DNA of 64,000 nt from Candidatus Saccharimonadales bacterium (GTDB lineage Bacteria > Babelota > Babeliae > Babelales > Chromulinivoraceae): positions 56,088 to 120,087 of the forward strand of contig DATIJN010000140.1 of assembly GCA_035478615.1 (NCBI GenBank), given 5' to 3'. The notes under the pieces were generated by a model, which had not been told where the DNA came from, searched no databases, and worked only from the letters and a program-made list of their open reading frames with translations. Positions 17,523 through 27,560 of the stretch are shown here, in pieces. Positions within the stretch are counted from its first letter, which is position 1; each line of letters begins with the position of its first letter. A program made the position numbers and the translations under genes.

Positions 17523-18281
17523 ATGGATACCACCATAACAATCACGTTTGGTGAATGCGTGGAAAATCATGCTGGTATGCAACAAATTGGAAATAAAAGT
17601 AATATTGGTTTAAGTGTTGATGAATTAAAAGAAGCGAAAACAAAGATTGAACAATGTGGTGTTAAAGTTGATGTTGAACTCATTCATTTAAATCAATACA
17701 ATAAAGGCGAAGGTGATGAAGCTGCTATATTGATTATAAGACAAGGCGCCAATGCATTGTTGCATGAATACAACAATGAGCAAGGTGCCAATGCCTTGTT
17801 ACATGAATACAACGATGTTAAATGGGATACGAAGGCAAAAATGAAAGGTAGAGTAGTAAATAAACGCGCAAGATTTAATATTTGTATGGCTGATGAATCA
17901 CAAACTGCCAATTATGAAGAAGGTAAAGGTACAGTGGTGTCGTTTGATGATTTACCATTGACAAAGAAGATACGAGCATTATTACCATTATGGTTTGGTG
18001 AAAAGACAAATAACTTGAATGCTGAAGGCAATTATTATTATAACAACAATTGTTTTATTGGATTTCATGGAGATTTTGAGAGAAGAATCGTGGTTGCTAT
18101 TCGACTTGGTAAATCGATGCCATTGTATTATCAATGGTATCATCATTGCAAGCCGGTAGGTGAAAGATGTGATTTAATGTTACATCATGGTGACATGTAT
18201 ATTATGAGTGATAAGGCGGTTGGACACGATTGGAAGAAGAGTAGTTTATTGACTTTACGTCATGCTGCAAATTATAAATAA
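17523..18281 (+). CDS. AlkB-like 2OG-Fe(II) dioxygenase
   Basis: IGFHGDFERRIVVAIRLG (HxD), DLMLHHGDMYIMSDKAVGHDW (second His), LLTLRHA (Arg) align with E. coli AlkB LSLHQDKDE / LLLEHGDVVVWGG..HG / NLTFRQA. Confidence 0.55.
   Translation: MDTTITITFGECVENHAGMQQIGNKSNIGLSVDELKEAKTKIEQCGVKVDVELIHLNQYNKGEGDEAAILIIRQGANALLHEYNNEQGANALLHEYNDVKWDTKAKMKGRVVNKRARFNICMADESQTANYEEGKGTVVSFDDLPLTKKIRALLPLWFGEKTNNLNAEGNYYYNNNCFIGFHGDFERRIVVAIRLGKSMPLYYQWYHHCKPVGERCDLMLHHGDMYIMSDKAVGHDWKKSSLLTLRHAANYK
17745..17816 (+). repeat. In-frame 39-nt tandem duplication (GANALLHEYNNEQ / GANALLHEYND)
   Basis: Read directly from the DNA and its translation. Confidence 0.9.
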
Positions 18282-19839: not shown

Positions 19840-19865
19840 AAAAAATGTTTAATTAAACATTTTTT
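19840..19865. terminator. 26-nt palindrome, module copy A
   Basis: aaaaaatgtttaattaaacatttttt; starts immediately after the stop codon (19837-19839). Confidence 0.55.
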
Positions 19866-19877
19866 AAACACAAAAAT

Positions 19878-20873
19878 ATGTTATATGTTGATTTAAACGA
19901 CGATGTCTTACGTGAAATTTTATCTCATGCGGATATCCAATCTGTATTCCGATTTTGTCAAGTCAACAAGACTTTATGTCATCAACATGATGATTGGTTT
20001 CGACACATTTATGACCGTTTATATAACCATACCGATATGTCTGTATTTAAAAATAAAACGTCTGAGATGACGTGGTTACAGTTGCTTAAACTATGTTATC
20101 AATTGTCTCGATTACTTATCCTACCTTTACTTAAAAATGTTACAATGAAAGAATTATATACGACGACAGAATTAAATTTATCTGACCGAAAAATCACAGT
20201 ATTACCGCCGGAAATTGGTCAATTGATAAATTTAAAACTATTAAATTTGTCAAACAACCAACTGAGTGCATTGCCGCCGGAAATGGGTCAGCTGAGTGCT
20301 TTACAACAATTGTCTTTGTCAAACAATAAACTAAGTGCATTGCCTCCGGAAATCGGCCAGCTGATTAGTTTAAAAGACTTGTTTTTGTCAAACAATCAAC
20401 TGAGTACATTGCCGCCCGAAATGGGTCAGCTGGGTGCTTTACAATCATTGTATTTACATAACAACAAACTGAGCGCGTTGCCTCCGGAAATCGGTCAGCT
20501 GAGTGCTTTACATCAATTGTATTTGGATAACAACCAACTGAGTACATTGCCTCCAGAAATAGGTCAGCTGATTAATTTAAAATACTTGTATTTGCATGAC
20601 AACCAACTGAGTACATTGCCGCATAAAATGGGCCAGCTGAATACTTTACGATATTTGGATTTGGATTACAATCAACTGAATATATTACTGCCGGAAATTG
20701 GTCAGCTGATTAATTTAGAATACTTGTATTTGTCAAACAACCAATTGATTACATTGCCGCCGGAAATTGGTCAGCTGACCGCTTTACAACAATTGACATT
20801 GGTTAAAAACAAATTATCATCGGTATTTAAAAATGAGTTAGAACAACAATTACCAAATACTTATATTATTTAA
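19878..20873 (+). CDS. F-box-like + leucine-rich repeat protein (intact)
   Basis: LNDDVLREILSHADIQSVFRFCQVNKTLC followed by about 9 x 23-aa LSALPPEIGQL... units. Confidence 0.75.
   Translation: MLYVDLNDDVLREILSHADIQSVFRFCQVNKTLCHQHDDWFRHIYDRLYNHTDMSVFKNKTSEMTWLQLLKLCYQLSRLLILPLLKNVTMKELYTTTELNLSDRKITVLPPEIGQLINLKLLNLSNNQLSALPPEMGQLSALQQLSLSNNKLSALPPEIGQLISLKDLFLSNNQLSTLPPEMGQLGALQSLYLHNNKLSALPPEIGQLSALHQLYLDNNQLSTLPPEIGQLINLKYLYLHDNQLSTLPHKMGQLNTLRYLDLDYNQLNILLPEIGQLINLEYLYLSNNQLITLPPEIGQLTALQQLTLVKNKLSSVFKNELEQQLPNTYII
20175..20814 (+). repeat. 69-nt coding tandem repeats (LRR units), inverted relative to 7133-7781
   Basis: Periodic ...ctgagtgcattgccgccggaaat... blocks. Confidence 0.85.
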
Positions 20874-21136
20874 ATAATACATATAATCACAATCGATGTA
20901 ATCATGGTTGCTGTTGTTGCAAAAATTGCAAATAATGTCTTTTTTGATAATAAATGGTGATTTAAATCATGTATATGATGATTTACATCAAGTATAGCAT
21001 CATTGACATCACTTACACCATGTTCAATTTTATTTAAATCGTGTTGTTGCTGATGTAAATGTTGATTTAATTCATATGAAAGATGGATGACATTTGTCAT
21101 TTCATCATGTAATTGTTTTAAATCATCATGAATCAT
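20870..21136 (-). CDS. Tail-anchored coiled-coil protein with Q-SNARE-like motif
   Basis: HQQQHDLNKIEHGVSDVNDAILDV aligns by eye with syntaxin-1A [24 protein letters not shown]. It is followed by SKK and a C-terminal hydrophobic anchor TLFAIFATTATMITSIVIICII. Confidence 0.45.
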   Translation of the reverse strand: MIHDDLKQLHDEMTNVIHLSYELNQHLHQQQHDLNKIEHGVSDVNDAILDVNHHIHDLNHHLLSKKTLFAIFATTATMITSIVIICII

Positions 21137-21140
21137 TTTT

Positions 21141-21166
21141 ATATCATATAAATATTTATATGATAT
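21141..21166. promoter_or_regulatory. Perfect 26-nt palindrome in a head-to-head spacer
   Basis: atatcatataaatatttatatgatat. Confidence 0.3.
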
Positions 21167-21173
21167 TGATAAA

Positions 21174-22400
21174 ATGGCTTCAAAACAAAAATTAAAGGAT
21201 GATGTTATTTATAAAAAAAAACAACATGAAAATGAATTACGTCATTTGATTTATCAAATATACGAAGGTATGACTGATAAAAATCATCACCCATTTATTA
21301 AAAATATCAAAAATCCAAAATCCTTATTAACAAGCCTTATAAAATTACACAATATGATTGGATTAGATGATATTAAAACATCCATTGCTAAACAAACTAC
21401 TTTTTTAATAAACAAATTAAATAAGGGTGATTTAAGTATGAAAATGTTAAATACAGTTCTTATGTCCGGACCTGGTACTGGGAAGACAACTGTAGGTATA
21501 TTGATGGCCGAAATATGGCATCATTTGGGGTTTTTAGATTTAGCTAGCAAAAATAATAATCAGTTATCTTTATTTTCTAAATTATCACATTATAACGAAG
21601 AAGTATTACAACTTTATGCAATCATGTTATTATTCGCAGCGAGATTAATATATCATGAGTTTTTACAACCCATGTATGTTAAATACGGTAATAAACTTAT
21701 TATCGGTATGATTGTGTTAATCACGACTGTCATTATTTTACTATATACGAATAGTGATGCATTGTTATTAACCAATCATAATCAGTCCATCATCACAATT
21801 ACTAGTCGTTCTGATTTTGTAGACATTTATTTAGGAACAACGGATAAAAAAACAGAAAAATTGTTAAGAAATAATATTGGTAAAGTGGTTTTTATTGATG
21901 AAGCGTATTCATTATATTCAGGACCGCAAGATATTTACGGTATGGAATGTTTAACTTGCATTAATAAATTCATGTCCGAACATGAAAATGAAATTGTTAT
22001 TATTTTTGCTGGTTATGAAGAAGATTTAAAAAACACGATATTTAAAGCACAAAAGGGACTAGCGCGGCGATGTATGTGGCATTTCAAATTGGATGATTAT
22101 AGTATCGAACAACTGTTCGACATTTTTGAACAAAAATTAAAAGATGAACATTTATCCATTTTAAAAAAAGACTATAATAAAATTAAAGATTATTTTGTCA
22201 ACAACAAAGATGCTTTTGTTTATGCTGGCGGTGACGTTGAAAAATTAATCTTTTTTTGTCAACTTAATCAAAATCAGTGTGACGTTGTTGATTATAAAAC
22301 CATAAAATGCGGTATTAAAGAATTGTATAAAAATAATCAAAAATTGATTAAAAATGATCATGATTGGTTACAAAAATTGAAGGAATTAAAAAATGTTTAA
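21174..22400 (+). CDS. AAA+ ATPase, CbbX/SpoVK-like, with hydrophobic insertion
   Basis: Walker A SGPGTGKTT; Walker B VVFIDEAYSL; FAGYEEDL and GLARRC downstream. An insert of about 84 aa lies between Walker A and B. Confidence 0.75.
   Translation: MASKQKLKDDVIYKKKQHENELRHLIYQIYEGMTDKNHHPFIKNIKNPKSLLTSLIKLHNMIGLDDIKTSIAKQTTFLINKLNKGDLSMKMLNTVLMSGPGTGKTTVGILMAEIWHHLGFLDLASKNNNQLSLFSKLSHYNEEVLQLYAIMLLFAARLIYHEFLQPMYVKYGNKLIIGMIVLITTVIILLYTNSDALLLTNHNQSIITITSRSDFVDIYLGTTDKKTEKLLRNNIGKVVFIDEAYSLYSGPQDIYGMECLTCINKFMSEHENEIVIIFAGYEEDLKNTIFKAQKGLARRCMWHFKLDDYSIEQLFDIFEQKLKDEHLSILKKDYNKIKDYFVNNKDAFVYAGGDVEKLIFFCQLNQNQCDVVDYKTIKCGIKELYKNNQKLIKNDHDWLQKLKELKNV
22373..22380 (+). promoter_or_regulatory. 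AAAATTGA upstream of the FNIP gene (second copy at 22340-22347)
   Basis: Exact octamers starting 53 and 86 nt before the ATG at 22426, inside the 3' end of the AAA+ gene. Confidence 0.35.
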
Positions 22401-22413
22401 TTAAACATTTTTT
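22388..22413. terminator. 26-nt palindrome, module copy B
   Basis: Identical to 19840-19865; contains the AAA+ gene stop codon. Confidence 0.55.
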
Positions 22414-22425
22414 AAATACAAAAAT

Positions 22426-23422: not shown

Positions 23423-23518
23423 TCCATGATTACGATTACTAGTCGTTCTGATTTTGTAGACATTACAAAAGTTGAAGGAATTAACAAGTTAACATATTTT
23501 AACTACAAAAATATGTTA
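23423..23518 (+). pseudogene. Internally deleted remnant of a second AAA+ ATPase copy plus its terminator/promoter module
   Basis: 23423-23464 matches 21786-21827 at 39/42 positions. 23464-23518 is a degenerate copy of 22371-22431 (gene end, hairpin, acaaaaatATGtta). Confidence 0.5.
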
Positions 23519-23529
23519 ATACATATAAA

Positions 23530-24609
23530 TTACGCTATTAAAATAAAAGAAACCGTGGTAGACGCTGTATTGGTTGTACTACTATTTGGCGGTACTGTTA
23601 AGGCAGTAGGTCCATTACCAGAAGAAGCACATACGGCTAAAAAAGATCCAGAGGCAGCAACCACCAAAGCATCACCCACAATTTGAGATGTACCTGTGGC
23701 TCTACCTACATTACTATAAGTCAATGCGGTCATACCTACCAAAGTAGTCCCATAAAACAAAGTCATACCGCCATCCTCATTGATAGTAGCTTGAAATACT
23801 ATTTTATAAATTCCTGCAGTAGGAAGCGTAAACACTGTCCCAGATGCTGTAAAAGGACCTTGAATAGCAGTTGTCACGGTAATACCTATACCATTAACCA
23901 CTGTTCCTGAATAGGTAAAGGGTTGTCCAGAGGCAACTGTGGCTGGTTGTGACCCTGATTGAAAAAATTGAGAAGCACTTACTAATGACCCGGTCGGACC
24001 AGTGGCACCTAATGAACCGGTTGGGCCAGTGGCTCCTACACTTCCTTGTAATCCAGCAGGTCCAGTGGCACCTAATGAACCGGTTGGGCCAGTGGCTCCT
24101 ACACTTCCTTGTAATCCAGCAGGCCCAGTTGTTCCTATTTGTCCTGTAGGTCCTGTTGCTCCTACATTTCCTTGCAATCCAGCAGGCCCAGTTGTTCCTG
24201 TTTGTCCTGTAGGTCCTGTTGCTCCTACAATTCCTTGTACCCCAGCAGGCCCAGTTGTTCCTGTTTGTCCTGTAGTTCCTGTTGCCCCTACAATTCCTTG
24301 TAACCCAGCAGGCCCAGTTGTTCCTGTTTGTCCTGTAGGTCCTGTTGCTCCTACATTTCCTTGCAATCCTGCAGGTCCAATTGGTCCTGTTTGTCCTGTA
24401 GGTCCTGTTGCACCAGTATTAGAAGCGGTACCAGCAGGACCAGTTGGACCAGTTCTTCCAGTCGGTCCAGTTGGCCCTGTTGGACACTTACATTTTTTAT
24501 GTTTATGACATTTCTTCTTTTTATGACATTTCTTTTTGTGACAATGTCTGTCATTGTCATGGCATGGATCACATTTTGCTTCTTTAAGACATTTTGGACA
24601 GTCACACAT
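23530..24609 (-). CDS. Collagen-like protein with Cys/His/Lys-rich N-terminus and C1q/BclA-like C-terminal domain
   Basis: About 55 uninterrupted G-X-Y triplets. N-terminus is [41 protein letters not shown]. The C-terminal non-collagen beta-rich domain contains [16 protein letters not shown]. Confidence 0.8.

Positions 24610-24711: not shown

Positions 24712-27560
<2,849 letters not shown>

Follow-up and report, generated by a model that had tools for sequence, protein, structure and literature searches.

The window analysed here, 64,000 nucleotides of contig DATIJN010000140.1 (C140) from an assembly filed under Candidatus Saccharimonadales (GCA_035478615.1), comes from a Mimiviridae-like (Imitervirales-type) giant virus whose DNA was mis-binned into a bacterial metagenome-assembled genome (MAG). 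On its minus strand, between a convergent F-box/LRR gene and a divergent AAA-ATPase gene, lies an 88-aa open reading frame (ORF) at 20870-21136, found where an earlier note on this DNA had placed it; that note read the product as a possible virus-encoded mimic of a Q-SNARE. The observation itself is confirmed, the interpretation is supported in part (the protein is Qc-like, not syntaxin-like), and the idea of a SNARE mimic is plausible and testable. The features of the locus are as follows.

20870..21136, minus strand: the 88-aa ORF in its Met1 reading, stop included, MIHDDLKQLHDEMTNVIHLSYELNQHLHQQQHDLNKIEHGVSDVNDAILDVNHHIHDLNHHLLSKKTLFAIFATTATMITSIVIICII (ORF list, codon usage, predicted helix).
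20870..21100, minus strand: the alternative 76-aa reading from Met13 (ATG at 21098-21100), Met1 lying within a promoter-like box.
20963..21121, minus strand: the SNARE-like heptad motif, residues 6-58 (heptad register, layer alignment, packing).
21047..21049, minus strand: the codon of Gln30, the candidate zero-layer residue, at heptad position d (best of 34 offsets).
21077..21079, minus strand: the codon of Ser20, a small layer -3 residue as in Qb/Qc SNAREs (G/S/A) (layer alignment, packing).
20936..20962, minus strand: the juxtamembrane linker NHHLLSKKT, residues 59-67 (translation).
20873..20935, minus strand: the transmembrane anchor at the C-terminus, residues 68-88, LFAIFATTATMITSIVIICII, which lacks a luminal tail (hydropathy, predicted helix).
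21128..21140, minus strand: AAAAATGATTCAT, a 13-nucleotide match to the promoter-like box, which holds the Met1 ATG (box survey).
21141..21166, no strand: a 26-nucleotide perfect palindrome, ATATCATATAAAT/ATTTATATGATAT, between the divergent starts of the ORF and the AAA-ATPase gene (palindrome scan).
20864..20879, no strand: a 16-nucleotide perfect palindrome, TATTATTTAAATAATA, centred on the overlapping stops of the ORF and the convergent F-box/LRR gene (palindrome scan).

The ORF is a real gene and not a chance reading frame, which we conclude from its gene-typical codon usage together with random-ORF statistics. Its in-frame codon-usage log-odds are +0.40 bits/codon, against 0.32 +/- 0.10 for the long genes of the virus and -0.96 +/- 0.39 for wrong frames; the remaining five frames of the same stretch score -0.42 to -1.52. 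An ATG-initiated ORF of at least 76 codons is found in only 1.3% of random 300-nucleotide stretches of the same composition, and among the 3,257 ORFs of the 1.6-Mb assembly, in which the region occurs once, this is the sole case that joins a tail anchor to at least 12 of 16 hydrophobic heptad layers.

The protein had been described as a coiled-coil-type heptad region followed by SKK and a terminal hydrophobic anchor, and the heptad count, the linker sequence and the hydropathy of residues 68-88 all bear this out. In the best heptad register, I/L/V/M occupy 16 of the 19 a/d positions of residues 2-65 (the other six registers reach 1-9), and the core runs uninterrupted for 18 layers with S20 and Q30 as its sole polar residues. 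Within it, at residues 6-58, lies a stutter-free 16-layer motif of SNARE type, in keeping with the length of about 53-60 residues that marks SNARE motifs. Its a/d positions spell LLMVSLLQLIVVIVIL; numbered from Q30 as layer 0, layers -7 to +8 are L L M V S L L Q L I V V I V I L. The central Gln does fall on a core layer, as the earlier note had supposed: Q30 sits at heptad position d, with hydrophobic residues at -3 (layer -1) and +4 (layer +1), in the phase of Q226 of the syntaxin-1A zero layer. AlphaFold2, run on the single sequence, predicts one continuous helix from residue 2 to residue 87 at a mean predicted local distance difference test score (pLDDT) of 93.9. Hydrophobicity peaks over residues 68-88, with which the protein ends (a Kyte-Doolittle mean of 2.35 for residues 70-88); between layer +8, which is L58, and this transmembrane domain (TMD) stands a 9-residue basic linker, within the roughly 8-12 residues of SNARE anchor spacing.

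The heptads are also rich in His, again as first described. Twelve of the first 66 residues are His (18%, compared with 3.5% in the ORFs of the virus), and all 12 lie at b/e/f/g positions. The calculated side-chain charge moves from -5.7 at pH 7.4 to +4.3 at pH 5.5, and the exposed face carries His pairs in HxxxH and i/i+7 spacing (H28/H32, H56/H60, H32/H39, H53/H60 and H54/H61).

To place the core among known SNAREs we used a reference set of 12 SNARE motifs verified against PDB chains and aligned without gaps on the zero layer. In position-specific scoring over 34 offsets, the one that puts Q30 at layer 0 scores highest on every profile (Qa, Qb, Qc and pooled). The only non-hydrophobic core positions are then layer -3 (Ser) and layer 0 (Gln); at layer -3 the reference set has G/S/A in Qb and Qc, Phe in Qa and Met in R (syntaxin 6: LVILSILQLFLTLVLV). 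Absolute profile scores are close to 0 bits, within the -18 to +23 bits spanned by true SNAREs whose own class is left out. When the core residues are shuffled, the profile score of the protein is reached with p = 0.0055 for Qc and 0.011 for the pooled profile. On a position-specific scoring matrix restricted to the core, it scores 17-19 bits, above all 62 other coiled-coil-like proteins of the assembly and equal to or above true SNAREs with their own class left out.

Packing bears on the class as well. Each helix of the neuronal, late-endosomal and early-endosomal SNARE complexes was replaced by the viral helix, and the root-mean-square (RMS) side-chain volume change per layer was taken as a proxy, a heuristic on three reference complexes only, which gauges compatibility rather than binding. 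As Qc, the viral helix gives an RMS change of 19.4 Å3 (29.1, 13.4 and 15.8 in the three complexes, the last two being endosomal); as Qa it gives 38.6 Å3, as Qb 35.4 Å3 and as R 42.5 Å3. Natural same-class swaps range from 10.5 to 38.4 Å3 and natural wrong-class swaps from 35.5 to 63.1 Å3. The core shape is specifically Qc-like, with its Qa, Qb and R fits in the wrong-class range. Core shuffling reproduces the Qc fit with p = 0.0002 over 16 layers and p = 0.0006 over layers -5 to +8, and none of 146 natural coiled-coil-like proteins (472 windows) matches it, the best of them reaching 23.9 Å3. Among the offsets of the protein itself, Q30 as layer 0 is the sole good fit, with 32.5 Å3 for the runner-up. 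A small layer -3 residue that complements the Qa Phe and the R Met, combined with a Qc-like size pattern at the other layers, which marks the Qc subclass, is found here through S20 and the packing, by a heuristic that draws on three PDB-verified Qc motifs. Sequences that we take to be those of BET1, GS15, Sft1 and yeast Bet1 also pack best as Qc and have Ser at -3, which is indicative only.

The likeness to Bet1 and Sft1 in size and layout, which the earlier note had pointed out, is an apt one, and the core fits their class. Bet1/Sft1/BET1L (GS15), syntaxin 6 and syntaxin 8 (PDB 2NPS chain D and 1GL2 chain D) share with the viral protein a layout in which little more than a single SNARE-length heptad motif is joined by a short basic linker to a C-terminal TMD, as well as the layer 0 Gln at d and the small layer -3 residue (Ser, as in syntaxin 6). 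Its per-layer side-chain volumes lie within 29 Å3 of syntaxin 8 and within 27 Å3 of syntaxin 6 at every layer. In what we take to be human BET1, again indicative only, 59 residues run from layer 0 to the C-terminus, equal to the viral protein. It differs from the minimal Qc-SNAREs in having no detectable homology to them, in an unrelated surface that is 18% His and in the lack of an N-terminal extension.

Our tentative preference, at somewhat less than an even chance, is that the protein is a SNARE-like Qc mimic. As the gene of an uncultured Mimiviridae-like giant virus, it would be translated in the host cytosol, and its moderately hydrophobic anchor, with no luminal tail, would probably insert post-translationally into endomembranes of the endoplasmic reticulum type. 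The cytosolic helix, with the core geometry of a minimal Qc-SNARE (Gln at layer 0, Ser at layer -3 and the smaller Val where Qc side chains are small), would most likely act as the Qc helix in a four-helix bundle whose Qa, Qb and R SNAREs come from the host, and host vesicle fusion could then be driven or blocked, for example while membrane is recruited to the viral factory. Given its His-rich surface, formation of the bundle could depend on pH or metal ions. The SNARE pairing, the target membrane, the timing and the host are what we infer, and the side-chain-volume proxy speaks only to the compatibility of the helix with a parallel, heteromeric QaQbQcR bundle; an amoebal host was an assumption of the earlier note. 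What stands of that note's Q-SNARE mimic is the minimal tail-anchored SNARE architecture, the register of the Gln and the Qc-like packing; what finds no support is homology or the likeness to syntaxin (Qa). A bolder form of the proposal, in which a virus-specific minimal Qc-SNARE, diverged beyond recognition or else convergent or de novo, keeps only the buried layer code and uses its His surface for pH- or metal-switchable entry into host bundles, strikes us as distinctly unlikely.

A considerable body of results weighs against a Qc mimic, beyond the heuristic nature of the packing proxy. Similarity to SNARE profiles, whose lack the earlier note had named as grounds for refutation, was not found, by PF05739, by other SNARE Pfam families and by custom hidden Markov models (HMMs) alike. 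No SNARE-type Pfam family (PF05739, PF00957, PF12352, PF09753 or PF03908) matches the whole protein or residues 1-66 even at E <= 10, the Pfam output being scattered coiled-coil noise at E >= 0.009, and a six-frame search of the assembly with PF05739 does not list the ORF. HMMs for Qa, Qb, Qc and R that we built from the 12 SNARE motifs, checked against PDB chains (about 1.7-1.9 bits/residue), give a best E of 8 for the protein. The sole match in a PDB sequence search with phmmer is syntaxin 7 (E = 0.54), aligned four heptads away from the register of the earlier note. Sequences that we take to be Bet1, GS15 and Sft1 also yield nothing above the Pfam cut-off; they do show faint Use1, Sec20 or Synaptobrevin matches, and even these are absent for the viral protein. 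Searches of NCBIfam and PHROGs return only generic coiled-coil noise, and a Foldseek search of the PDB with the AlphaFold2 model has no matches, as expected for a lone helix. The negative Pfam result is softened because the same library misses the PDB-verified SNAP-25C motif and scores Stx8 at only 15.8 bits, below the cut-off.

Relatives of any kind are equally lacking. No homologue was found by a word search of 5.8 billion clusters, by phmmer at E <= 0.001 among 1.84 billion representative proteins, or by a pattern scan of IMG/VR and JGI metagenome contigs, and the eight neighbourhoods of AAA/MutS homologues, about 110 kb of the closest viral contigs, hold neither a tail-anchored heptad ORF nor a phmmer match. 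The protein is an orphan, and no syntenic orthologue was found. Since neither profile similarity nor evolutionary relatedness to eukaryotic or viral SNAREs was found when each was tested, it should not be filed as a SNARE; membership of the family is not warranted, and "SNARE-shaped" is the apt description.

The surface of the helix adds to this. The by-eye alignment with the syntaxin-1A zero-layer region in the earlier note was correctly described, with the heptad phase around the central Gln shared with the syntaxin-1A H3 region, Q, I, E, V and D identical and I/L, D/N and R/K conservative. Its surface identities ("IDRIE versus LNKIE") do no better than shuffles that keep composition and heptad position (p = 0.38-0.43; 0.43 for the syntaxin-1A match), and there is no SNARE-specific signal on the surface. 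The viral protein is also unlike syntaxin-1A in having Ser in place of the Qa Phe at layer -3, in its poor packing as Qa (38.6 Å3) and in lacking Habc. A start at Met13 would cost the motif layers -7 and -6, leaving only layers -5 to +8.

These same results lend themselves to a second explanation, which we regard as a good possibility, if short of probable: a homo-oligomeric (trimeric or tetrameric) tail-anchored coiled coil with no relation to SNAREs, serving as a viral scaffold or spacer or as a pH- or metal-responsive component of the virion inner membrane or the factory membrane, in which the Ser and Gln of the core would be ordinary. Bulky I/L/V at both a and d favour three- or four-stranded homo-oligomers, nearly all a and d positions of this core are of that kind, and its bulky beta-branched residues would suit a homo-trimer or homo-tetramer equally well. 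The lack of SNARE-family profile similarity, an orphan status such as lineage-specific structural or accessory genes typically have, a strongly His-rich surface atypical among the SNARE motifs compared, and the absence of trafficking-partner genes nearby all fit this explanation as well. It does not account for the placing of S20, Q30 and the four Val at Qc-required positions (core shuffle p = 0.0002-0.0006), for a Qc fit reproduced by 0 of the 146 natural coiled-coil proteins, or for a layer number and TMD spacing that are those of minimal SNAREs.

Rather unlikely, to our minds, is a tail-anchored coiled-coil adaptor for some other host or viral factor, such as a tether, a membrane-contact-site protein or a metal-binding His-rich helix, that would enter no SNARE bundle. 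The exposed His pairs (HxxxH and i/i+7) would allow metal binding, the calculated charge reverses between pH 7.4 and 5.5, and the gene sits in a variable accessory region amid F-box/LRR and FNIP-repeat genes; set against this, no positive evidence points to a specific partner, and the Qc-like layer pattern would have to be a coincidence. That the ORF is non-functional or fortuitous, lying in an AT-rich spacer between the F-box/LRR and AAA-ATPase genes, is very improbable, for while its orphan status, the lack of a promoter box upstream of Met1 and the 1.3% of random stretches with an ORF of at least 76 codons would allow it, the codon usage is gene-typical in frame and strongly negative in the other five frames, an 18-layer amphipathic heptad with a 21-residue anchor is unexpected from random sequence (and unique among the 3,257 ORFs), and the ORF is flanked by a promoter-like box and a terminal palindrome.

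Where the protein begins depends on that box. On the viral contigs a promoter-like box, (A/T)AAAAATGATT(C/A)A, stands at sharply fixed spacing, with a peak at -34, upstream of AAAAATG(G) starts; AAAATGAT occurs in 81 of 380 upstream regions, where about 12 would be expected, and the box is reminiscent of the Mimivirus early-promoter octamer, AAAATTGA. The 11-mer form, AAAATGATTCA, has 27 copies on the viral contigs, classed as promoter-type (14), plain start (2), ambiguous (3, with this ORF among them) or neither (8). Here the Met1 ATG falls inside the 13-nucleotide box match, the ATG at box+34 opens another frame that stops after MK, and the next in-frame ATG is Met13, at box+39. No promoter box lies upstream of Met1. 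In favour of Met1, AAA-ATG-A is the commonest context of true starts (67 of 476 ORFs), and the box+39 spacing of Met13 is off the peak. On balance we hold a start at Met13 to be about twice as likely as one at Met1, and the protein may be of 76 rather than 88 aa. Because the box itself contains an ATG, some genes are over-extended by 10-12 codons in naive ORF calling.

Perfect palindromes at the gene boundaries have the look of hairpins that serve as signals in 3'-end formation or in regulation. The 16-nucleotide palindrome at the convergent stops looks like a shared hairpin for 3'-end formation, after the Mimivirus "hairpin rule." Another 26-nucleotide palindrome, AAAAAATGTTTAATTAAACATTTTTT, unlike in sequence to the one at 21141-21166, is present in two copies (19845-19870 and 22390-22415), each directly ahead of a gene start. 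We rejected the idea that the region of the 88-aa ORF is left over from a duplicated terminator-promoter cassette of the window, as that region has no second copy in the assembly and its palindrome differs in sequence.

The assembly as a whole is filed as a prokaryote genome of 1.6 Mb in 156 contigs, which by marker genes is 97% complete with 3% contamination. Its contigs fall into two populations of GC content, one of about 29% (C113, C140, C125, C132 and C141, together about 0.42 Mb) and the remainder of about 33-35%. A major-capsid gene of nucleocytoplasmic large DNA viruses (PF04451, 58.6 bits) lies on C113, in the same GC class as C140, and the genes of the window include a large mRNA-capping enzyme/methyltransferase, MutS, VLTF3, collagen-repeat proteins, an F-box/LRR protein and a FNIP-repeat protein. 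The capsid gene, carried by a contig of matching GC class, the capping enzyme, MutS and VLTF3, and the two GC populations establish the giant-virus origin of the window; the whole bin is chimeric, with the five contigs of about 29% GC being giant-virus DNA. The nearest relatives of the MutS are on metagenomic contigs, at 47-61% identity.

Elsewhere in the window, a 252-aa protein (17523-18281, plus strand) has a weak match to 2OG-Fe(II) oxygenases (AlkB-like) at E = 5e-4, under the Pfam cut-off. The loci 23530-24609 (minus), 25800-27560 (plus) and 25715-27100 (minus) hold collagen-triple-helix repeat proteins with GxT/GxQ repeats, one of them with a Cys/His/Lys-rich N-terminus, and a 461-aa antisense ORF that overlaps the 586-aa collagen-like gene and is probably a repeat artefact.

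The divergent neighbour of the ORF (21174-22400, plus strand) is an AAA ATPase of the CbbX/SpoVK/EccA type in which a long hydrophobic insert separates Walker A from the Walker B region, and it has many metagenomic homologues at 45-59% identity. We considered it as an NSF-like factor for SNARE disassembly and rejected it on account of its type. A short ORF at 23426-23686 (plus strand) repeats the segment ITITSRSDFVDI of this ATPase, which suggests a truncated duplicate. Searches of the assembly for partner SNAREs, Sec1/Munc18 and Rab proteins (PF05739, PF00957, PF12352, PF00995 and the custom HMMs) found none. Both results count, with those above, against a Qc mimic; the missing partners are weak evidence because the bin holds only about 0.42 Mb of virus. 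The lone Ras-family gene on the viral contigs is a full-length Ran homologue (C141:10290-10847, plus strand), which scores 189 bits to Ran in the PDB and about 93 to Rabs and has a -34 box upstream. Viral Ran genes have been reported mainly from Pithoviridae (PMC9546365).

A SNARE-like protein in a giant virus would not be without precedent. Giant viruses encode about 80 SNAREs, most of them with a TMD, and in vitro some of these form complexes with neuronal SNAREs (Khalifeh, Neveu & Fasshauer 2022, Traffic, PMC9546365). They were found by SNARE HMMs at E < 1e-4, can be assigned by profile to Qa, Qb, Qc or R and resemble repeated host-to-virus transfers (PMC9546365); they are thought to be inserted post-translationally into host membranes and to disturb host trafficking rather than to act as entry fusogens (PMC9546365; see also PMC11915834). 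The protein described here is like these SNAREs (e.g. Mimivirus Qbc-SNARE L657) in being encoded by a member of the Nucleocytoviricota and in having the TMD that most of them have. It is unlike them in that they are HMM-detectable, whereas SNARE profiles fail to see it and it stands without relatives; with neither relatives nor a profile match, an origin by transfer from a host cannot be shown for it.

Bacterial mimics offer a second parallel. Chlamydial IncA and Legionella LseA are likewise pathogen proteins with a heptad motif that resembles SNARE layers, and they are proposed to engage or inhibit host SNARE bundles. IncA is a hairpin-anchored protein of the inclusion membrane, a topology unlike the tail anchor of the viral protein. 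LseA and its relatives differ from it in being HMM-detectable. Most SNAREs of the Legionellales have no TMD and rely on CAAX lipidation instead (PMC9546365).

Virus SNAREs that HMMs can detect are thus already known. An orphan, minimal, Qc-like helix that profiles do not see and whose His surface switches charge would be new, if the SNARE-like reading is right. At 76-88 aa the protein is small enough for synthesis and for in-vitro assays of SNARE assembly and liposome fusion. Should it prove to be a homo-oligomeric membrane coiled coil instead, it would be another lineage-specific orphan of modest interest. As a Qc mimic, it would be a natural minimal scaffold for asking what a SNARE helix needs beyond core packing and how His residues may gate assembly, and if it is indeed switchable, it would amount to a SNARE that drives or inhibits fusion conditionally, a kind undescribed in cells or viruses. 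The SNAREs of giant viruses have so far been found by homology alone and are regarded as captured host genes. If the Qc mimic is real, viruses can also hold or evolve SNARE mimics that HMMs do not see and that a screen for layer geometry does find, and censuses based on profiles would undercount the SNAREs that viruses encode.

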